Below the pieces are notes generated by a model, which ran no database searches, was not told the DNA's origin, and saw only the letters and a program-made list of their open reading frames with translations. The translations under genes were made by a program, and so were the position numbers. 54,562 bases of DNA, from positions 1 through 54,562 of the forward strand of contig JAHFFR010000004.1 of NCBI GenBank assembly GCA_023247825.1. The letters run 5' to 3'. Each line of letters begins with the position of its first letter. Position 1 is the stretch's first letter. The stretch comes from Candidatus Omnitrophota bacterium (GTDB lineage Bacteria > Omnitrophota > Gorgyraeia > Gygaellales > Profunditerraquicolaceae). Shown here piece by piece: positions 499-32,844 of the stretch.

Positions 499-1374
499 TT
501 ATTGGGCTTTCTTGGAAAAACGGTACTGGATAAAAGATATTATAATTAATACCATGCCGAAAGTAATCCCCTGCGCGCAGGCATAACCGAAACGTGAGCC
601 GCGCATTGAAGCAAGTATCCTTAAAACCGGCACAGAGGTATGCCCGGCAAATTCACCTCCGACAAGGCTGATAATCAATACAAACACCTGCATCGTGCCC
701 AGTACCGTGAGGATGCCCACCAGCACCATAATCGGGATCATCAGCGGTATGGTTATTTTTTTAAATGACTGCCAGGCGCTTGCTCCGTCTACGCGCGCAG
801 CTTCATAGAGTTCGCGCGGTATGGTCTGCAGGCCGGCCAAAAATATGAGGAATCCCCAGCCAAAACCTTTCCAGCAGTGTATCACGGCAACAGTCGAGAG
901 GGCGGTGCTGGGATCCGACAACCAGTTATGCACCAGGTTTGGCAAACCTATCTGCGTAAGCGTGCGGTTAATTATATTTGCTCCGTCAATATCATTAATA
1001 ATAAAACGCCAGGCCATACCCACGACTACTTCCGATAAAACCGGGGGGATAAAAAAAATTACCCGGTAAAAATTCTTCATTTTTATTTCACGGTCGCATG
1101 CCCAGGCAAGCATAAAAGCCAGGATATTCTGCAAAGTTAAGGCGATCAAAGTAATGTAACCAGCATTCCACATTGCCTGCCACCAGTTTTTATCCTGCAG
1201 GAATATCTCTTTAAAATTTTGCAGGCCTACGAATACCCTGGTAAAAGAAATCCCATCCCAGTCAAAGAGCCCTAATTGAAAAATCCAGATAAACGGAATA
1301 ATATAAAATACGGAGAATATCGTTACTGCCGGCAGGACAAAAGCATAATTTTCTAAGCTATCTCTTATTCTCAT
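499..1374 (-). CDS. Carbohydrate ABC transporter permease (MalF/UgpA-like)
   Basis: Several TM helices, VGLQNF motif and EAA loop IPRELYEAARVDGAS. Confidence 0.93.
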   Translation of the reverse strand: MRIRDSLENYAFVLPAVTIFSVFYIIPFIWIFQLGLFDWDGISFTRVFVGLQNFKEIFLQDKNWWQAMWNAGYITLIALTLQNILAFMLAWACDREIKMKNFYRVIFFIPPVLSEVVVGMAWRFIINDIDGANIINRTLTQIGLPNLVHNWLSDPSTALSTVAVIHCWKGFGWGFLIFLAGLQTIPRELYEAARVDGASAWQSFKKITIPLMIPIMVLVGILTVLGTMQVFVLIISLVGGEFAGHTSVPVLRILASMRGSRFGYACAQGITFGMVLIIISFIQYRFSKKAQ

Positions 1375-1376
1375 TA

Positions 1377-2678
1377 TTACGCTTTTTTCTTGGCGATCTG
1401 GCGTTCCTTGACCTTCTGGACTTCGCCGGCTACCTGCTCGGGGGTTTTTTCTCCGATAATAATTGACTGGATGCCGCGGTCAAAGGCTTCCGTTACCAGG
1501 GGAAACTCCGAAACCCCCCAGATATTCGGGTGGGTGGCGTAATCCATGCCGCGGGCAAACTGGGCCAGTATTTCAGGAATTTTAGAGAGGCTGTTTTTAT
1601 TGGCGGGCAGATTATTCGTAGCCTGCGCAAGGTATGCCTGCTGGTCCTGACCGGTTAACCAGATTAAAAACTTGACCGCCTCTTCCTTGTTTTTAGAATT
1701 CGCGTTTACCATAAAAGAAGAACCTGCTCCGCCCCAAATAGCCATAGGATATTTATCAGACGCCTGCGGCGGAAGCATCGCCCCGTATTCAAGCGCAGGA
1801 TTCATCCCTTTATAAACATTTACGCACCATGAGCCGTTAAAAGCAAACACCGCTTTTTCATTGGCAAAAAGCTGCTCGGCGCTTTTATTAATCATCGTTA
1901 CCAGGCCTTGAGCCAGGAGGCCGGAATCCTTCATCTGTTTAAATATGGAAAATACCGTAACCCAATCCGGGTCAGTATAGGGGACTTCGCCTTTTATCGT
2001 GGCCAGCACCTTGTCTTTACCCATAATATTAAAGGCATAATTATTTGCCAGGCAGCGGATTAGCCATTCTTCTCCCCATCCGGAAACCAGCCCCTGCATC
2101 CCTGCTGTCCGGATTTTAGCTCCGATATCTAAAAATTCCTGCAGGGTTTTCGGAGGCCGGCCCGGATCTAAGCCCAGCCGGGAAAAAAGTTTTTTATTAT
2201 AGACCATCTGAATGGTCATAACATCTATCGGCACCCCGAATATTCCGGGATTTATCCCGTAGCTATTAGCCGCCGTAAACTCATCTACTGCCAGCGCCTT
2301 GGGAAAAAAACTATTCTTCCAGCTATTATTATTGGCCTCCATATAGGAGGTAAGATCTAAAATGTGATTGGCTTTAATAAAAGAGGCGAAATCCCTCTTT
2401 TCCCCTAAAATGCCAAAAACATCCGGAAGGTTTACGCCTTGCGCAGCCGCGCGGATTTTTTGGGAATAAGCTTCCGAAGGGGCATAAAGCTCAAAATTTA
2501 CTTTTATGCCGGAAAAGGCTTCATATTTCTTTGCTAATTCCTGGAAGGTTGCGTCGCGGTCAGTCATCCAGTGCCAGACGGTAATGATAGGCTTTGAAGC
2601 GTTTTTTTGGCCTGAACAACCTAAAATTGAAAAACACACAAAAATACCCAGAAGCGCGTTCTTAAACAATATCCTCAT
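1377..2678 (-). CDS. Sugar ABC transporter extracellular solute-binding lipoprotein
   Basis: Lipobox ILG-C, ITVWHW N-terminal motif, PDVF, NGSW, family-1 SBP layout; SD GAAGGAG upstream; directly upstream of two permeases. Confidence 0.92.
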   Translation of the reverse strand: MRILFKNALLGIFVCFSILGCSGQKNASKPIITVWHWMTDRDATFQELAKKYEAFSGIKVNFELYAPSEAYSQKIRAAAQGVNLPDVFGILGEKRDFASFIKANHILDLTSYMEANNNSWKNSFFPKALAVDEFTAANSYGINPGIFGVPIDVMTIQMVYNKKLFSRLGLDPGRPPKTLQEFLDIGAKIRTAGMQGLVSGWGEEWLIRCLANNYAFNIMGKDKVLATIKGEVPYTDPDWVTVFSIFKQMKDSGLLAQGLVTMINKSAEQLFANEKAVFAFNGSWCVNVYKGMNPALEYGAMLPPQASDKYPMAIWGGAGSSFMVNANSKNKEEAVKFLIWLTGQDQQAYLAQATNNLPANKNSLSKIPEILAQFARGMDYATHPNIWGVSEFPLVTEAFDRGIQSIIIGEKTPEQVAGEVQKVKERQIAKKKA

Positions 2679-3306: not shown

Positions 3307-6300
3307 TTATTTACCCTTATTCGCCTCTTTTACTGCTAATATGGCGGCATCTACCGGGGCAGACAGAGACGAAGGTTCAGGTAGTAGAGCAGAAATTTCT
3401 GCCGGTGTTCTTACGAGGCTCATATCTACGGGCGTTGTTATTAAAGGCCTCTCGTTAAAAAACTGGTTAAACTTTCTTAAAGAAGGTATTTTACCAATCG
3501 CTTCGGTAGCGATGTTAAGCTGCTTCACTGCTTCATTTACTACCTCCGGATGATTTTGATATTTTAATTTCACTTCTTCTATCGCTATGCCCGTTCCTTT
3601 CAATTTTATAAGATGCGCCAATTCGGATAAGACTTCCGAAACTTCTATCTTTTCTTGTGAAACAGTATTTTCTATCTGTTCGTCCAAAATAATGCCCTCG
3701 ATCTCTTCATCAGAAACTCCAAACCCCAGATAAATTCTCAATAACAATTCATCGGAAACTTTGGCTGCCGACAAGCCTCTGAGTTGCTTCAGATTAAGCT
3801 GAGCGTTAAAATTAATACCTAAATTTTTAGCTAAGATTTCCTCCTGCAAGCTCTGAATATTTTTATCTACTTTCCCATTTAATGTTTGAATATAAGACAA
3901 CATATGTTTTCTTAAAGCATCTTCATAACCAAATATCAACCTTGCATATTGTTTTATATCCGACTCTCTAAAATGTGTGGCAACAAATTCAGCCACACTC
4001 ATCTTTCCAGCAGCTAAATTCATTATTTCTCCTAATGAAATGGAGTTTCTATCCACCTTGTTATTTATTTCGCTGCTTAATAAAAACTTATCTACTCTTT
4101 CAACCGCGCCGAGCTCTTCATTGGTTATCTCATTCAAATTAGGAGCCAGTAAAAGAGCGAAATTTGCCGCTGAAAGTCCACTGACTTTATCTATATCAGC
4201 TAAGGTTATTGCCTTTACGCCTATCTCTGTTATCTTTTTTAAGCGACGTTCATAAAATTTAGAAGAAATCTTGTATTTTAGAATATTCAAATTATAGGAC
4301 GTATAGCTAAAAGGATTTCTGGAAAAACTCTGTTTGGGTTGCCGCATAATAGCTGATGAAATAGAGTTTATTTTCTGGTTAGTCCGGCTTAATTTATTTT
4401 CTGCTTCAATAACTGGCTCAAGCTGTTTCTTTAATTTCTGGGATAATACGGGTTTAGCCGTAGTTAACTTCCGGATGATTAAATTATACACAGCAAAATC
4501 AGATTTTACCGTATTGACTAAATAGCTTATTTCTTCGGGCTCAACTTTAATGCCAAAACTATTGATCAATCCTCCCACAGAAACAAGCCTGCCTAACTGC
4601 CCTTTTAATATCTCATTAGTATCGATATCAAAATACACTAAATCCTTCTGATATAAAAATTCAGCTATCTTAAGGGCTTGGCGCAATGATGGCCTGCCGT
4701 CTGCCGGAAGCCGATTATTTATGTTAGAAAAACCAAGATTTCTTAAGGCTATTTTTTCTTCCTTAGATAAACTCATCAATCTTTTCGCTAAATCAAATAA
4801 AGCCGCTCCTTCATGGTTAAGGACATTCGATCCAGGAATTACCCAACGATTAAATGTGCTTTTCAATAATCCTATATCTTCATCTTTCATGGCTTGCATT
4901 GCCGTAAAAACTGAATCAAAACTTACTGTCGTAGCTCCTGTTTTCTTATAATCCCATTTTGTCTTGCGGATAAAACTATTTACATTCCGTGCCGCTTCAA
5001 GAGGAGACATATCCGTATGTTTAACCTTATAAATATTCTGCAGGTTAATTTCCAGCTGTAATCTTTGAGATGCTTCAAATAAAATATCCTTCGCCTCCTG
5101 CTCAGTTTTCGCCCTGGATAAAGCATCTCTTTCTTTACTCGTTAACAGCAGGTCATCTAAACGAACTATCCATTTATACTCGCCCGTCATTCTTCGTCTG
5201 GCTACCGAAGGTATCATCCCCACCCTCTCTCCTGCCTGAAGCACATTAGCTTCGGGTTGAAGCCCAAAAAGAAACATCTTAGCCTCACTTTCATCTCCCG
5301 CGATCTTAGCCGCCACATTCGAGCCTTCAATCAACCCTTGCATCCAAAGTATGCGCTTTTGAGAAGGGTTATTCTTTCGGTCTGTGATGAATTTAATGTA
5401 TTGCTGCTGGTAATTGATGATATCCAAATCAGCGCCGAATTCCTTAAGCTTTGCTAAAGCTATATCTGGTTTACGCGTTATAAATTCTAAAGCTTCAGAG
5501 CGCGTCTTTATCTTAAGGGATCCTTTACCTCTGTCAGCCAATAGCATCTCGATAAACTTATCTTTTAAATCTTCCGGGAGCTGCGATATTTGCCGTATAT
5601 TTTGCACCGTGTTATAGGTGATTAAATTAACTTTTATATCCCGGGGCAATATTGTCTTATAATCCTTGGAAGCAAAATCAGAATCTAATTTAGTCTGCTT
5701 TTGCCAGTCAATAGACTGCTTATAAGCAGCGTTTAATTCTTTAGCATCGCTCGCAGACCCAAGCCGAAGAGAGGTTTTTGCGTCAGCCGCTACATCATCC
5801 CTGATGATTTCAGCATTAGAAGCTTCTTTAATATCCCCGGCGGTTTTATCTTTATTCACTTTTGGCGATGAAGTCCTATATTTAACCTTAACATCACCAG
5901 CATACTTCGGCCCTGAAATCGACTTATCAGGAAGAATAATATCAAATTTATCTAAGGTAACCTGTTTCGGCTTAGCCATGAGTTTCGGCTTAGCCATGGG
6001 GTCATTAACTGGAGAATGATCTCCGGCAGGCTGGATCTTGGCTAAAACGCTGGTTTTTTCTTTTACCATATCATTATAATTCCTTCCGATTTGCCTGACC
6101 GGAATCTTTAATCTGTCAAAGCTAAGCTCATAAGCAGGGGCTGTCCCGCTAAAACCGGAAACACTCTTTGCATCTTCCAAAGCCTGCACATAATTGGCCG
6201 CGTGTTTTGTTTTATCCATCAAAACTTCTTCAAACGACTTAAAATCCCAGCCATGTTTTACCGCCATCATCTGGGCCTGCAAATTGTTTAAGGCTCCTTC

Positions 6301-27013: not shown

Positions 27014-28564
27014 TTATTCCAGCTTATTTTCATCTATATTATCACTCCCCTGATTTTTCCTTTCGCCTCTTAAGACGGAAAGGTAAATACTGGAGTCGGT
27101 TTTTTTCGTGATCGCCGGGGTTACCACTGCGTAGGAATACCCCTTATCTCTAAACATCTGGGTCATGCCGGGAGTATGAAACCCGCCGGCAATAAACACC
27201 GCTAATTTTTCACCGGAATCATTCATTTTATTGACGATATTCTTAATAAATGCCTGCTCCCGGTCCGAGCCCAATTTATAAAACTCATCGAATTTACTCA
27301 AGTTCTCATCGATTACGCCGGAGGCGGATGGCTGCACCGCTAAACTGTATTTGGCGCAATTCTCCTTTAAAAAATCAAGCCAGGAAGCGGTTAAAAATTC
27401 CTGGCGATGTGCTTTAAAATATTCAAAATCCTCGGGGGTCATCTCTAAACTCACCAGCCCTTTGAGGATGTTAATTGATTTTGAGAGTTCATATAATTTC
27501 TTCTGGTCGGTATTGGCAAAAAGCGCCTCTTTTATTTTTTCTTCCAGCGAGCCAACTTCTTTTAAAAGCGCTGCCACATCTATCTTTGTATTTTCATTTA
27601 TGTAGCGGATATAAGCGGCCAGCTGAGGATAATTTTGCTCAAGGTTTATTCTTTTCTTCGCCGCCAGTTCCTTCAAAAATGAATAATATTCCTGGGGCTT
27701 AATACCGCCTGACTTAAATTCCTGGCTCTTATCAATTACCGTCTTTACCTGTTTTTCATTAAGCACGCTGCCCAAACTCTTGATGAATTCATTTCTTTGC
27801 GCTTCCGCCTGTTTAAAATCAACCGCTTTTTCCAGCCGGGCTAATTCAGCAAAAGCGCTTAAATATGGATAATCCTTAAGGTCAAAACCTTTGCTGGAAG
27901 CAATATTCTTAAGATACCCGCAGTAATCGCCTAAAGAGAGCGTTTTACCTTCGTAATTCTTCTTTGCGCTTTCCATATATCCCAATTCTTCACTATATAT
28001 CTTCGGCTTCAAAACGCTGACAATTTTGGATAAATCATCCAGATATTTTAATCCCTCGTCCCGGACAGAATCCACCTTATGAAAGGCCTCTAAATGCGCG
28101 TTATACAGCGCTTCATCCTCTATGCCATACAGGTCAAGAGGATAATCGGAAATGATATCCAGATACTCTTCGCCTGAAATTTTGCCTAATTTTAAGTATT
28201 TGTCGGCAACTTCCTGCCTGGCCTTTTTATCCGCGTAGTTGCGCAGAAAGTCAAGGTTAACATTACCGCTGCCGCCCTCAACCATAATCAATTTAAGGCC
28301 GTAGTCCTTGACCAAAAAATCCAATAACTGCGCCATATTCTTCTGGGCTTCGTAATTGCAATGGGCATCCTGGAGATGAATAATGGTTTTGGCGCTATTT
28401 TGCATGGCGCTCTGTGCTTCGAATGTATCCTTAATATTGCCAAACTGGGTGGGAATTTGCAGGGTTTTGACTAAAGAGGCGAAAGCAGAAGAATCCAAAG
28501 TGGAAAGTAAAAGGAATACAACAATGAGTAAGGGAATTTTTTTCAGGTAATGAGGTTTTTTCAT
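27014..28564 (-). CDS. Exported TIKI/TraB/ChaN(EreA)-like fold protein, standalone
   Basis: Signal MKKPHYLKKIPLLIVVFLLLSTLDSSAFA; motifs IIHLQDAH..YEAQ, MVEGG, DRE..F..NI, FIAGGFH..G. Start placed at ATG 28564; the track's extension to 28621 lies inside the structured leader. Confidence 0.65.
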   Translation of the reverse strand: MKKPHYLKKIPLLIVVFLLLSTLDSSAFASLVKTLQIPTQFGNIKDTFEAQSAMQNSAKTIIHLQDAHCNYEAQKNMAQLLDFLVKDYGLKLIMVEGGSGNVNLDFLRNYADKKARQEVADKYLKLGKISGEEYLDIISDYPLDLYGIEDEALYNAHLEAFHKVDSVRDEGLKYLDDLSKIVSVLKPKIYSEELGYMESAKKNYEGKTLSLGDYCGYLKNIASSKGFDLKDYPYLSAFAELARLEKAVDFKQAEAQRNEFIKSLGSVLNEKQVKTVIDKSQEFKSGGIKPQEYYSFLKELAAKKRINLEQNYPQLAAYIRYINENTKIDVAALLKEVGSLEEKIKEALFANTDQKKLYELSKSINILKGLVSLEMTPEDFEYFKAHRQEFLTASWLDFLKENCAKYSLAVQPSASGVIDENLSKFDEFYKLGSDREQAFIKNIVNKMNDSGEKLAVFIAGGFHTPGMTQMFRDKGYSYAVVTPAITKKTDSSIYLSVLRGERKNQGSDNIDENKLE

Positions 28565-28760
28565 AGTAATAAAAAAAGCCACGATTTTTTTAATTATACT
28601 AGCTGAACTCCCATAATACATTCAGCTAGCGTAATTAAAAACCGTGGCCGATTTTAATTATACTATCTAGTTACCTAATCTTTTAAACTTTTGAAAAGTC
28701 CTTAGAAAGCGCTTTCCTTTAATTCTTCTACAAGTATACTGTATTATAGAGCTTTGTCAA
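28565..28760 (-). promoter_or_regulatory. Leader copy 1: sigma70 promoter + palindromic operator + alternative-hairpin attenuator
   Basis: TTGACA (28760-28755)-16 nt-TATACT (28738-28733); GAAAGCGCTTTC (28705-28716); hairpin TAATTAAAA-TCGGCCACGGT-TTTTAATTA; long stem GCCACGGTTTTTAATTA...TAATTAAAAAAATCGTGGC followed by a T-run. Confidence 0.75.
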
Positions 28761-28800
28761 GATTTTTTTCACTTTTTTAAAGCAAAAAAGCGAGTTTACG

Positions 28801-31800
28801 TTATATAAACTTATTTATAAAATTAGCCACTAAATCAGCGTCGGCTTTGGTTGCCTCGGATACCCCCTGAACAGGCTCTATATCCGGCAAATCAAGTCCC
28901 AAAAACACCTGACTATAAGTATTTTTATAGGTCTCTTTAGAAATAATCCCCTGGCGCTCCATATTTCCATAAAATTCTTTGAACCTATCTAAAATAATTC
29001 CGCTGTAAGATCTCCCTTCTGAATTTGCGCCTGCAAGAACTTGCATCGCCTTGGCAAGCGCAACAATACTGATCGTCTTATCTGAAAATCCCACTTGTTT
29101 AACTTTTAAATCTATCTTTTCTCCTGCCGGCTTCAGTATCACAACATTCTCTTGAAGATTAACCTGCCGATTTTCTAATTCTGACTTTAATTCGCCTGCT
29201 GTTTTTACTGCAATAATGTTGCTGTTTTCGCTAAACAAAGCCCTTATCTTATCCGCGCCTTCTCCATAAATATCAAGCATAATACGTACGCCATGGCGTG
29301 GCTGCAATCTAATAATCGCGTTCAATGCGTCTATGGCGCCGGGCTTCTTAAAAAAGCTTGAATGAACAACTAAAGCTAATTTTAAATCTTCAAGGCGGAA
29401 TGTTTTAGAATACAAAACTTCAAACTGCCCCCATATATCGTCAAGATATCCGGGCAATAGTGCCTCTGCGCCTACGGCTTTAAAGAATCTGCTGTTAGCA
29501 TTTAAGAAATTTTTTAACTTTTCTGCATTGCCATCATCAAAGCCTATTTTAACAGGTATGCCTTCCCCATTAACCCATAGCCTGTAAGCTGGTTTAAAAC
29601 GCTCCTGCCAGAGTTTTCCTGCTTTTTCACGGGAAGAAACTGCTTCTTTTAACAATTTTCCTGCTTCGGTTCCTTCCTTTTGAGCAGCTAATTTCTCTTT
29701 TTTGTCTGCATCTTGGTCGCGGTTAACTGCGTCCCTATCCATAGCAAAATTCCTGCCCACAACTCCGGCAAGCTGGATGTTACCTGAATTAAGTTCCTTT
29801 ATCTTATCTTCAATCTGTTTTAAATAATGGATCCCGTTTTCATCGGGTATGCGCGTCATCACATCCCGGCCATCAAGTATCGGCCAGATATTGACTTTAA
29901 TATCGCTGCCTAAATTCATTTGTTTTGCCATTTCCATTAATGCCAGAAAATATCTATTATCGGAATGGATGCCGCCGCTGGAATAAAGCCCCATTATGTG
30001 GATATTATGGTTTCCCTGTCTGGCCAATTCAAATACCTGGCGTAAAACCGGATTTTCAAAAAAAGTTTTATCATTAATTTTATCTATAATCTGTTTATAA
30101 AGCGTAGGCGGATTGTAACCTGTCCCGATGACACGGTGTCCATTGTCTGAATCTCCCATTTGATAATCCGGAAGCCCAACCGCATCTCCATGAGCCTTAA
30201 GAGCTGTAAAAGGACAGTTCGTAAGAAGATCCAAGTAAACCGGCGGCTTGGCTAATTCAATACCGTTATATTCATTTGCCTCAGGGTTATTATATTTATT
30301 CACCCCCCAGCCATCGCGGATCACTACAACTACCGGCCCTTGAATATCCTGATATTTATAATCTTCCAATAAACTTTCACTCATTTCTTCAGGCTTAGGA
30401 ATGCCTAATATTTCTAATAAAGTTGCGGCTATATTAGAAAGCCCCTTGCCCTTTTTTAATTTTATATCCTTTCCCAATCCATCAACTATAAAATTAACCG
30501 GATTAGTAGTGTGCTGATCAAAAGGGATTACACCATATTTATCAGATAAAGGCATGCCTTTCTCGTCTAAGGTTACCAACTGCTCAATATTGCCATGGTC
30601 TGATATTTCAATATAAACACCTTTCTGACGCAGAGTTTCCTCGCGAATTCTTCCAGCTTCCTTATCCGCGGCTAAAACCGTCTTCTTGGCCCGCTCCCGG
30701 TCAACCTTGATATTATGCCCCTGGATATCCACAGGCAAATTAACAACGACCATTTTCTTTTTGGGCGTTTCTTTAATTTCATCCAGATAATTAATTACAT
30801 TATCAGTTATCTCTGCATATTTCATTTGCGGAGCTTTCTTATTATCTTCAACGCTTTCGGAAGGAACAATTGATACCTTTATGCCCAAAGCCGCATAATC
30901 CAGGTTTCTCTGTCCGGCAAAGAAATAGGTAACGTGCTGGCCCTTATCCGATTCTGTAAAATAACCTTGAATCACGCCTGCATCTTTCAAAACTTCTATG
31001 ATACTTTTATACTTAGGCAAAGTAAACTCGGAAGTAAATGCGGCTTGAATTCCGTAAGCTTTAAAATGCTTCTCATCGTAAGTAGTAAAAGGTACAAAAG
31101 TGAGCCCTAAATCATCGATACCAAAACGATTACCATGCCGGTTGAAATTCGGATCCGTAAAAGCAATCATTGCTCCTAATGAACGGTCGGTCCGATGATT
31201 CGTCCAGATAACTATATCGCCTTTCTTTATTTTACCTACGGGCTCGCCTTTAGGATCAGTTACTATCAAAGGGGGCACATAATAATCATCCATACTTGCC
31301 CCACTTTTCGTGTAAATTTTTTCCAACTGCTCAAAAATTGTAGGCAGAGGTTCCTTCGCTTTTAATTGAATAAATCCGATAGACCTGCCTTCAGGAGGAT
31401 AAAAAACTCTTTCTCCAGTGACTATATCCTCATCATTAAACTTGAAATCAACAAATTTTTCTTTTAAATCTTCTTGGGAAAAATAATGGACAAGTTTTTC
31501 ATCTCTTACAAAAGTATTTTTTTCTATCTTTTCGCCTTTGCCATAGGTTTTGTCGTTCACTGATTGAGCAATGAAATATATGCGGCCGCCTGGTTTTAAA
31601 ACTCGGTATATTTCCTTAATAGCCCTAGCAATGTCGACATCTTTCATAAAATTTAAGCTTAAGTGACTGTAAACCACATCAAAGGATTCATCTGAAAAAG
31701 CAAAAGTTTTGGTAAGATCTTGAACCTTGGTTGTCAAATTTTTTATATTTTCTTTATTAATTTTACCACTTAATTCACTAATTGCAGATTCAACAAAATC

Positions 31801-32172
31801 TGTAGCAATTACGGTATGCCCGGCTTTTGCAAAAGATTCTTCGTCTAATCCTGCTCCACAACCTAGAGAAAGAATCGTTGATCCCGGTATCATATCTTCG
31901 AGTACTTCTTTAGCAAATTGGTGTATTTCTATCTGTTTAGCTTTTCTGGCATCTTTTAAATCTTTCTTCCAGACTAAATGTTGATCAATTAACTCTTCCG
32001 AAATCTCTTTTACTCTTCCATCTTCTTTTGTTGCCGCCTCTCTCCTTAAATTATCCGAAACGAATATACCGGCATAACTCCTTATCGGAACGCCGGTAAA
32101 AATAAAACTGGTTAAAGCAACGCCGGAAATGAATTTTACGAATTGAGTTTTTTTAGGAAATCGTGTGTACAT
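28801..32172 (-). CDS. gpmI: Signal-peptide-bearing fusion: class I SAM methyltransferase - circularly permuted 2,3-BPG-independent phosphoglycerate mutase - shared C-terminal domain (1,123 aa)
   Basis: Start reassigned to ATG 32172 (SD GAGGAG; leader homologous to the other fusions). MTase SLGCGAG, FDVV, RVLKPGG; iPGM NHRTDR, ESDKGQHVT, DIQGH, SDHGN, HTTNPV, then RDGWG, GDSDNGH, GGIHS, DGRD, GRNFAMDRD. Confidence 0.9.
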   Translation of the reverse strand: MYTRFPKKTQFVKFISGVALTSFIFTGVPIRSYAGIFVSDNLRREAATKEDGRVKEISEELIDQHLVWKKDLKDARKAKQIEIHQFAKEVLEDMIPGSTILSLGCGAGLDEESFAKAGHTVIATDFVESAISELSGKINKENIKNLTTKVQDLTKTFAFSDESFDVVYSHLSLNFMKDVDIARAIKEIYRVLKPGGRIYFIAQSVNDKTYGKGEKIEKNTFVRDEKLVHYFSQEDLKEKFVDFKFNDEDIVTGERVFYPPEGRSIGFIQLKAKEPLPTIFEQLEKIYTKSGASMDDYYVPPLIVTDPKGEPVGKIKKGDIVIWTNHRTDRSLGAMIAFTDPNFNRHGNRFGIDDLGLTFVPFTTYDEKHFKAYGIQAAFTSEFTLPKYKSIIEVLKDAGVIQGYFTESDKGQHVTYFFAGQRNLDYAALGIKVSIVPSESVEDNKKAPQMKYAEITDNVINYLDEIKETPKKKMVVVNLPVDIQGHNIKVDRERAKKTVLAADKEAGRIREETLRQKGVYIEISDHGNIEQLVTLDEKGMPLSDKYGVIPFDQHTTNPVNFIVDGLGKDIKLKKGKGLSNIAATLLEILGIPKPEEMSESLLEDYKYQDIQGPVVVVIRDGWGVNKYNNPEANEYNGIELAKPPVYLDLLTNCPFTALKAHGDAVGLPDYQMGDSDNGHRVIGTGYNPPTLYKQIIDKINDKTFFENPVLRQVFELARQGNHNIHIMGLYSSGGIHSDNRYFLALMEMAKQMNLGSDIKVNIWPILDGRDVMTRIPDENGIHYLKQIEDKIKELNSGNIQLAGVVGRNFAMDRDAVNRDQDADKKEKLAAQKEGTEAGKLLKEAVSSREKAGKLWQERFKPAYRLWVNGEGIPVKIGFDDGNAEKLKNFLNANSRFFKAVGAEALLPGYLDDIWGQFEVLYSKTFRLEDLKLALVVHSSFFKKPGAIDALNAIIRLQPRHGVRIMLDIYGEGADKIRALFSENSNIIAVKTAGELKSELENRQVNLQENVVILKPAGEKIDLKVKQVGFSDKTISIVALAKAMQVLAGANSEGRSYSGIILDRFKEFYGNMERQGIISKETYKNTYSQVFLGLDLPDIEPVQGVSEATKADADLVANFINKFI

Positions 32173-32185
32173 CTTTCTCCTCACA

Positions 32186-32334
32186 AAACAAAAAAACCAC
32201 GAATTTTCTAATTGGGATAACTGAACTCTTCTGCCGAATTCAGTCAACTCAATTAAAAACCGTGGCCGTTTTTAATAGAAACCGCTTTCCTTAAATTTCT
32301 GCTATAAGTATGCTATATAATAAAATTTTGTCAA
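32186..32334 (-). promoter_or_regulatory. Leader copy 2: sigma70 promoter + palindromic operator + alternative-hairpin attenuator
   Basis: TTGACA (32334-32329)-16 nt-CATACT (32312-32307); GAAAGCGGTTTC (32289-32278); hairpin ATTAAAAA-CGGCCACGG-TTTTTAAT; long stem CCACGGTTTTTAATTG...CAATTAGAAAATTCGTGG followed by a T-run. Confidence 0.75.
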
Positions 32335-32421: not shown

Positions 32422-32766
32422 CTATGAATTTAAAGGAATGTTCCGCAGCTTATTGCTCGCCCTTAAAAGCCGCGAAATACCCATTAAATCCGGCCGCTCC
32501 AAATGAATACCGGCTTTGTATTTATTGGAGTCCATCGTCTTTGACCAGACAACTTCTCCCTTGGCATATAGAAGATCGCTATTGTCGGGCATCTTAAACC
32601 ACATCTCCAAAGAATTACGCGGCTGCAGCTCCTCGCTGGTGACTACACCTATGCCGTTTGCGCTGACATCAAAGGTTGTTGCCTCTCCCTCCTTGTTTTC
32701 TTCGCGGTTAAGAAACCTCATTGGGAACTCTACCACAAACCTGGTGAACATCCTGCGGTCATCCAT
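32422..32766 (-). CDS. Standalone PilZ-domain protein, paralog of 2735-3043
   Basis: DRRMFTRF (RxxxR), DVSANG (DxSxxG), GEVVW, shared C-terminal LERxDLMGISRLLRA; SD AAAGGAGGGG. Confidence 0.88.
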   Translation of the reverse strand: MDDRRMFTRFVVEFPMRFLNREENKEGEATTFDVSANGIGVVTSEELQPRNSLEMWFKMPDNSDLLYAKGEVVWSKTMDSNKYKAGIHLERPDLMGISRLLRASNKLRNIPLNS

Positions 32767-32844
32767 TGTCCCCCTCCTTTCTCTCTAGCTAATTGCATTT
32801 TGACACAAATTATTTTTTTGTCAATTATTCCGGTGAATAAAATA

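Follow-up and report, generated by a model that had tools for sequence, protein, structure and literature searches.

A promoter-proximal GCCACGG hairpin with terminator-like anatomy in the leaders of giant exported-protein and PilZ genes of Omnitrophota

The window analysed here, a 54,562-nt stretch of a Candidatus Omnitrophota contig (JAHFFR010000004.1, positions 1 to 54,562 of the forward strand), carries two copies, A and B, of a long hairpin in the 5′ leaders of two of its genes. We find that both are elongated members of an uncatalogued, Omnitrophota-wide family of promoter-proximal leader hairpins, in which the 5′ strand reads GCCACGG, the 3′ strand reads (C)CGUGGY, the inner and upper stem are free in sequence and length, and a UUUUUWWUU tail follows directly. 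The reading that we favour, at a probability of about one half, is that these hairpins are factor-dependent leader attenuators, cis-acting RNAs in the 5′ leader of each operon. A preliminary description of the window had noticed the two copies together with a pair of mutually exclusive folds, and had proposed a ligand- or protein-controlled antitermination switch; its observations are confirmed by our analysis, and its interpretation is partly supported.

RESULTS

Two leader copies belong to a phylum-wide hairpin family

The two copies (28565–28660 and 32186–32276) are real and are read on the minus strand, as are the genes behind them. In each leader the order of parts is a sigma70-type promoter, the palindrome GAAAGCG[C/G]TTTC, an A-rich run, a 71-nt hairpin, U7 and the start codon. 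The promoters, which throughout this work are predicted by a scan that scores out of 12, stand 84 nt (A) and 40 nt (B) upstream of the hairpins. Between −35 box and U-run the two leaders can be aligned throughout, with the exception of a 45-nt stretch that is found only in A, and as a whole they fold at −51.1 (A) and −41.9 (B) kcal/mol (z = −5.5 and −5.0, respectively), with none of 200 shuffles folding as well. The compensatory changes that had been noted between the copies are present, as A-U is replaced by G-C at AAUUA/AAUUG and G-C by A-U in the CUGAA stem, and the apical loops of the two copies are indeed unrelated. The 14-mer CGGCCACGGTTTTT occurs at two sites in the window, which are the two copies, and a 21-mer search with up to 3 mismatches finds only A and B in the 1.41-Mb genome to which the window belongs. 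Comparison with Rfam gave no match to any family, neither at the gathering score nor at E ≤ 5.

A covariance model built from the copies and searched in relatives recovered four sister species with the element, which in every case precedes the gene orthologous to that of the 516-amino-acid (aa) protein encoded behind copy A. The leader plan extends well past these, since all 26 standalone 516-aa orthologs checked within the order (33–77% protein identity) have a GCCACGG hairpin and a U-rich tail at the same place. The length of the hairpin among these orthologs ranges from 20 to 73 nt, and what lies between the arms ranges about tenfold, from a 6-nt loop up to ~59 nt of unrelated yet self-complementary sequence. 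Because the distant orthologs share the leader plan with an inner part of 6 to ~59 nt, the long AU-rich stem of the window copies is a clade-specific elongation of a short ancient core. Both copies have every part that defines the family, namely the heptamer, the 3′ strand, a variable inner stem, the U-tract and a promoter-proximal position.

Scanned as a pattern, the family has matches in 79 of 204 genomes at the family level and in 148 of 401 sampled genomes of the phylum, and most of the listed matches are clean hairpins. With a reversed pattern as control, matches were far fewer at the family level, a difference that was less clear at the phylum level, neither control being totalled. About 100 instances were taken with their flanks. 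A promoter scoring at least 10/12 is found 6–95 nt upstream in 89 of 98 instances. The hairpin lies 40–95 nt from the −10 box in most members, both window copies included, and in 9 of the 89 strong-promoter members it starts 6–12 nt past the −10 box, i.e. at about +1. Applied to metagenomes, the pattern gave nothing but false positives within a protein-coding gene that is unrelated, and a search for contigs encoding the 516-aa protein has none on record.

The genes behind the hairpins are best seen in one relative, G127 (G numbers are labels of genomes, G000 being the window's own, and L numbers are loci). Here 13 of the 14 pattern matches are real copies, all of them in leaders. Each of the 13 follows a promoter-like sequence and stands 7–83 nt ahead of a start codon, in most cases with a purine run resembling a Shine–Dalgarno (SD) sequence. 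Behind them are genes for two PilZ proteins and one MshEN protein, for the 516-aa ortholog, for an exported TPR protein, and for a set of five exported paralogs longer than 800 aa, of which one has an enolase domain. The small PilZ protein constitutes a second ortholog series, with the hairpin in 24 of 30 genomes; orthologs of the 516-aa gene were found in 35 of 234 genomes belonging to the order. The window's elements head exported enzyme-fusion genes, in support of the preliminary description, which had them governing exported gluconeogenesis genes.

Two other origins of the repeat were rejected. A miniature inverted-repeat transposable element (MITE), which the preliminary description had raised against its own proposal, a repetitive extragenic palindrome (REP) or an uptake sequence is at odds with there being only 2 copies in G000, with 79 occurrences of GCCACGG against 71 expected, and with a position that is syntenic across orthologs; the copies are transcribed 5′ leader elements instead. 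A terminator belonging to the upstream gene is ruled out by the conserved promoter that sits upstream of the hairpin.

Individual leaders show variations on the plan. Locus L121 (G144:C71) has two GCCACGG hairpins, each with its own U-tract, in tandem and 58 nt apart within one leader. In L004 (~318–360) and L005 (G012, G030) a short open reading frame, ATGAGCCGCGAGAAAAAAGGAGAAAATGTTGGAAAATAA, lies between the U-tract and the real start codon, overlapping the SD as well as the beginning of the 516-aa ortholog, and its GCCGCGAGAAA part is kept in G067 and G068 without the ATG.

The constraint acts on the RNA and on the sequence of its 5′ strand

Several measures point to a constraint that acts on RNA, with the hairpin being part of the downstream gene's transcript and not a DNA operator. 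Counted over the inner stems, G·U pairs come to 85 for the sense and 27 for the antisense strand, and in 77 of 95 hairpins the sense RNA is the more stable of the two. The mean folding energy is −20.6 kcal/mol, compared with −11.7 kcal/mol when the inner part is shuffled, and 68 of 95 hairpins fold better than all 50 of their own shuffles. It is because of this sense-biased G·U pairing, the stability of the sense strand, the contrast with shuffled sequences and the roughly tenfold variation in arm spacing that we take the hairpin to be an RNA element.

The two strands at the base of the stem are constrained in different ways. In all 27 leaders of the 516-aa gene, which were located via that gene without the use of any hairpin pattern, the 5′ strand reads GCCACGG. 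The 3′ strand in the same 27 leaders appears as CGUGGC, CGUGGU, CGCGGC (which makes an A·C mismatch), UGUGGC, AGUGGC and GGUGGC, a variation that is mostly wobble-compatible, with the A·C mismatch in three cases. The inner stems differ completely between genera, via compensatory changes. As GCCACGG is fixed and all variation falls on the 3′ strand, the 5′ strand is therefore constrained by sequence and the 3′ strand by pairing.

The hairpin has the anatomy of an intrinsic terminator

In both copies a G+C-rich stem base (GCCACGG/CGUGGY) is directly adjoined by U7, and the whole is located between a predicted promoter and a start codon, which is the position of an attenuator. Across the family, tail positions 8 and 9, which the search pattern left free, are U in 68 and 81 of 95 members, respectively. 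The ordinary intrinsic terminators of G000 have diverse stems, none with GCCACGG, and the same TTTTTTAT-type tail. The terminator-like character that the preliminary description had seen in the stem and U-run is thus in the style of this genome, and from the shared tail it follows that the leader hairpin combines the anatomy of a working terminator with a recognition sequence.

If the hairpin and U-tract do act as an intrinsic terminator, they would halt most transcripts ahead of the coding region, and read-through would require a trans-acting factor that binds the GCCACGG 5′ strand before, or instead of, closure of the hairpin. In the window's clade the added AU-rich lower stem may let the upstream A-rich flank form an alternative hairpin, P1. 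This would display GCCACG in its loop and hold the next segment of the terminator's 5′ arm, and so would aid the factor.

A hairpin in this place could also be a structure of the 5′ untranslated region that does not terminate at all, either a stem-loop stabilising the mRNA against 5′-end-dependent decay or a processing site, with the U-tract serving as a landing site for the ribosome or S1 upstream of the SD. Stabiliser hairpins at the 5′ terminus are known from the ompA, aprE and ermC leaders, and the 9 of 89 members with the hairpin at about +1 have it in this classic position; the distance of 7–83 nt to the start codon suits such a role as well, and the ~33-bp near-perfect stems of the G000 clade have the length of an RNase III substrate. 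However, most members, the window copies among them, have the hairpin 40–95 nt from the −10 box, and a stabiliser could do without an invariant heptamer and without a strictly kept U-tract immediately 3′ of the stem. In addition, tandem hairpins in one leader (G144, L121) are an arrangement known for terminators. We consider a non-terminating structure unlikely, and still the best placed of the alternatives.

The 5′ strand is shared with the c-di-GMP-I riboswitch

The second hairpin (P3) of the cyclic di-GMP (c-di-GMP)-I, or GEMM-I, riboswitch has the consensus AAgCcAcGG...AGCCggGcU, of which the 5′ strand is GCCACGG, and 7 of the 12 GEMM-I riboswitches in G127 and G012 read AAA-GCCACGG exactly. 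Compared with P3, the leader hairpin pairs the bulged A with an inserted U, keeps a purine-rich bulge on the 3′ side and has the U-tract in place of the 3′ continuation. It differs from the GEMM-I families (RF01051 / RF03167) in having no first hairpin, no closing helix and no tetraloop/receptor, and is like them in occurring in the same phylum and in preceding the same kinds of genes (PilZ, secreted proteins). The RF01051 covariance model has no match in the window, in the G000 genome or on the hairpin leaders of G127, and one shared strand is insufficient for membership. The link to GEMM-I is a one-strand resemblance together with an overlap in the genes controlled, and not membership.

Both kinds of leader occur in tandem at locus L077 (G127:C7, minus strand). 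A c-di-GMP-I riboswitch (3312–3401) precedes the gene of a small exported protein, and ~800 nt beyond the riboswitch a GCCACGG hairpin (~2500–2543) with its own promoter precedes the next gene, which encodes a giant exported paralog.

The shared strand allows for a descent without a function in sensing, in which the hairpin would be a derivative of P3 whose aptamer has been lost, leaving an unregulated, constitutive partial terminator that fixes expression at a low level. In favour of such a descent are GCCACGG being the Rfam consensus of this strand, and verbatim in 7 of the 12 G127 and G012 riboswitches, and the A-rich 5′ flank and the purine-rich 3′-side bulge that the family keeps; both leader kinds also precede PilZ genes in the phylum. 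A heptamer without function should, however, drift like the inner stems, yet all 27 leaders of the 516-aa gene have it unchanged. Moreover, among the 30 PilZ orthologs there is no case in which riboswitch and hairpin replace each other, and the identity of a lone heptamer could be due to chance. An unregulated P3 remnant is therefore, in our judgement, very unlikely.

P1 is real in a part of the family

In P1 the A-rich flank is paired with the U-rich stretch 3′ of GCCACGG (AAUUAAAAxC / GUUUUUAAUU in the window), such that GCCACG is held in the loop. The competition between P1 and the long stem for the same 5′ arm, which had been described for the two copies, exists in the window's clade. Across loci the pairing of a flank with its own inner arm averages −2.0 kcal/mol, compared with −0.99 kcal/mol when flanks are permuted among loci (z = −6.3), and 9 loci pair at −6 kcal/mol or better where 1.8 are expected. 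G-C Watson–Crick pairs covary in unrelated loci (AAUUAAGAA/UUCUUAAUU, UAAAGGA/UCCUUUA, AUCAAGAA/UUCUUGAU). P1 is real in roughly a fifth of the family, the window included. In 9 of the 89 members it is impossible because the hairpin starts 6–12 nt after the −10 box, and besides P1 no complementarity to the core was found elsewhere in the leader.

This bears on a self-contained riboswitch, the ligand-controlled form of the switch proposed in the preliminary description, in which binding of a small molecule to the leader would decide between P1 and the terminator. In both copies these two folds exclude each other, P1 covaries in a subset of loci and the heptamer is common to the c-di-GMP aptamer, all of which speaks for a riboswitch. 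Yet only one hairpin is conserved across about 100 relatives, its loops and upper stem vary freely, and no structure of the size of an aptamer is present; nor does the c-di-GMP-I model match anything in G000 or on the G127 hairpin leaders. As P1 is weak and absent in most members, and as hairpins that start at about +1 leave no RNA upstream of them, a self-contained riboswitch is highly improbable. What stands of the proposed switch is a leader element with P1 as an alternative in this clade, and what becomes unlikely is the sensing of a ligand by the RNA itself. A trans-acting factor on the 5′ strand, with the help of P1 where it is present, is the better guess.

Scarcely credible is a palindromic DNA operator or cruciform bound by a transcription factor, for although the arms form an inverted repeat and other palindromes in these leaders (GAAAGCGCTTTC) are probably DNA operators, an arm spacing of 6 to ~59 nt, half-sites that are unequally conserved and G·U pairs that are far commoner on the sense strand are not expected of a DNA site.

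Candidate factors and other motifs in the leaders

One candidate for the factor is a GAF-ANTAR protein of ~243 aa that is encoded outside the window (G000:C21:1515–2516, minus strand), the N-terminal half of which was judged GAF-like by eye. It is encoded in 182 of the 204 family-level genomes. Its gene is the immediate upstream neighbour of a PilZ gene in G133 and G167–G169, and in G127, G110, G111 and G146 it is found ~5 kb upstream of a locus with the hairpin. Because the protein is present almost everywhere, its distribution is uninformative with respect to the genomes that have the hairpin.

Single hexaloop hairpins of the A..G.. type are enriched in the leaders (27 vs 11.2 expected), which is largely due to a cre-like box; the only one enriched is the GAAAGCGCUUUC box with its partial matches. 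This box could just as well be an operator for the LacI-family regulator, of which exactly one was found in each genome checked. The palindrome itself, GAAAGCG[C/G]TTTC, resembles a cre/LacI operator, lies 16–17 nt past each −10 box and is found upstream of 22 of 95 family members. Its flanks sometimes stay complementary via G·U, and as RNA it would form a hairpin with the hexaloop A[GA]CG[CU]U. A second leader motif, ACTTT-N4-5-AAAGT (e.g. GACTTTTCAAAAGTT, CTTTATAAAG), occurs in the window at 28676–28690 (minus strand) and at many related loci, before the hairpin in the 516-aa leaders and after it in many others, and could be a DNA site. Mimicry of a tRNA acceptor stem by the core was rejected, as GCCACGG is not the start of any of the 45 G000 tRNAs.

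Coordinates and neighbours of the window copies

The features of both leaders are collected in Table 1. The 516-aa gene is the first of a ~25-kb run of giant genes that continues down to 3307. The 1123-aa fusion behind copy B matches iPGM_N (4.5e-39), Metalloenzyme (5e-28) and Methyltransf_11 (2.6e-19) in Pfam. Between copy B and a gene for a 7166-aa protein lies a PilZ gene (114 aa, 32422–32766, minus strand), which has a promoter-like site of its own (32797–32824) and no GCCACGG hairpin; elsewhere PilZ genes are the commonest behind the hairpin. At the far end of the giant-gene run (499–2678, minus strand) are genes for an ABC-transporter solute-binding protein (SBP_bac_8, SBP_bac_1) and a permease (BPD_transp_1).

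Table 1. Features of leaders A and B and of the genes behind them, in window coordinates
Feature	Coordinates	Strand	Basis or remark
Promoter A: TTGACA, 16-nt spacer, TATACT	28733–28760	−	Promoter scan 11/12; kept upstream of all orthologs
Palindrome A, GAAAGCGCTTTC, cre/LacI-operator-like, early in leader	28705–28716	−	Sequence
P1 5′ strand A, AAUUAAAAUC	28650–28659	−	Partner 28632–28641; constrained fold −3.9 kcal/mol
Leader hairpin A: base GCCACGG/CGUGGC, then AU-rich lower stem and variable upper stem	28578–28648	−	−33.4 kcal/mol alone; covariance-model match 97.9 bits, E = 8e-19
U-tract A, UUUUUUUAUU	28568–28577	−	U7 = 28571–28577; tract ends 3 nt 5′ of the ATG
ATG behind copy A	28562–28564	−	
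Gene behind copy A: 516-aa protein, N-terminal signal peptide	27014–28564	−	No Pfam match
Promoter B: TTGACA, 16-nt spacer, CATACT	32307–32334	−	Promoter scan 10/12
Palindrome B, GAAAGCGGTTTC	32278–32289	−	As RNA: 4-bp hairpin, hexaloop AGCGGU
P1 5′ strand B, AUUAAAAAC	32268–32276	−	Partner 32252–32260; constrained fold −7.2 kcal/mol
Leader hairpin B: base GCCACGG/CGUGGU	32196–32266	−	−31.3 kcal/mol alone; covariance-model match 98.1 bits, E = 8e-19
U-tract B, UUUUUUGUUUU	32185–32195	−	U7 run = 32190–32196, its first U (32196) also closing hairpin B
SD (GGAG) behind copy B	32177–32180	−	
ATG behind copy B	32170–32172	−	
Gene behind copy B: 1123-aa fusion, methyltransferase domain and bisphosphoglycerate-independent phosphoglycerate mutase domains	28801–32172	−	

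DISCUSSION

Our analysis describes a conserved leader hairpin that is constrained as RNA and built like a terminator, and we propose that it is an attenuator whose termination would be relieved by a factor acting on its 5′ strand. A number of points weigh against this proposal. A strong terminator placed right after a near-consensus promoter would be costly if it were never relieved, and the members with the hairpin at about +1 suit a 5′-terminal stabiliser too. Next to the terminator P1 is weak (−4 to −7 vs −31 to −33 kcal/mol), and most members lack it. The known types of factor also fare poorly. Each of five genomes has a single NusG and no specialised NusG paralog, by which control of the RfaH/LoaP type is ruled out. 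No CAT_RBD antiterminator protein was found in any of four genomes, which rules out control of the BglG/LicT type. CsrA is absent, and GGA follows the core in under half of the members. Finally, the canonical target of ANTAR proteins, tandem dual hexaloops with A at position 1 and G at position 4 of which the second overlaps the terminator, is present in none of 95 leaders.

A more far-reaching proposal would tie the family to c-di-GMP throughout the phylum, as a regulon of PilZ and MshEN receptors and giant exported enzyme fusions, with the element derived or co-opted from P3 and read by a signal-responsive RNA-binding protein that relieves termination, for which the GAF-ANTAR protein and a PilZ protein would be candidates. 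In this full form we hold it to be decidedly unlikely. The identity of the core with one strand of the c-di-GMP-I aptamer suggests an evolutionary or functional link, connecting a riboswitch with a protein-dependent attenuator, that can be tested.

The uncultured Omnitrophota combine tiny cells with enormous genes, and to our knowledge nothing is known about how these giant genes are controlled. Across much of the phylum, the genes of giant exported proteins and of c-di-GMP receptors have leaders that share a single short RNA element. This element makes a regulon definable by sequence alone, and offers a direct handle for finding the regulator.

Among known systems, RfaH/ops and LoaP likewise have a short conserved leader element ahead of very long operons for exported or surface products, with the constraint on the RNA or non-template strand. 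In contrast to these, the Omnitrophota genomes (five checked) have one NusG-family gene each, and the element has no sequence likeness to ops. The leader hairpins also resemble the attenuators of BglG/SacY/LicT-RAT, PyrR, TRAP and ANTAR proteins (EutV/NasR/AmiR), in which an intrinsic terminator is located in the 5′ leader and several leaders are found per genome. With the ANTAR systems they share an encoded ANTAR-domain protein (182/204 genomes), although they do not have the dual-hexaloop signature. As in protein-dependent attenuators in general, a segment under sequence constraint overlaps the terminator in its 5′ half, and in this clade the weak P1 would here need to be stabilised. The GCCACGG family departs from these in that some members have no RNA upstream of the hairpin, and in that the recognition element is the base of the terminator stem itself.

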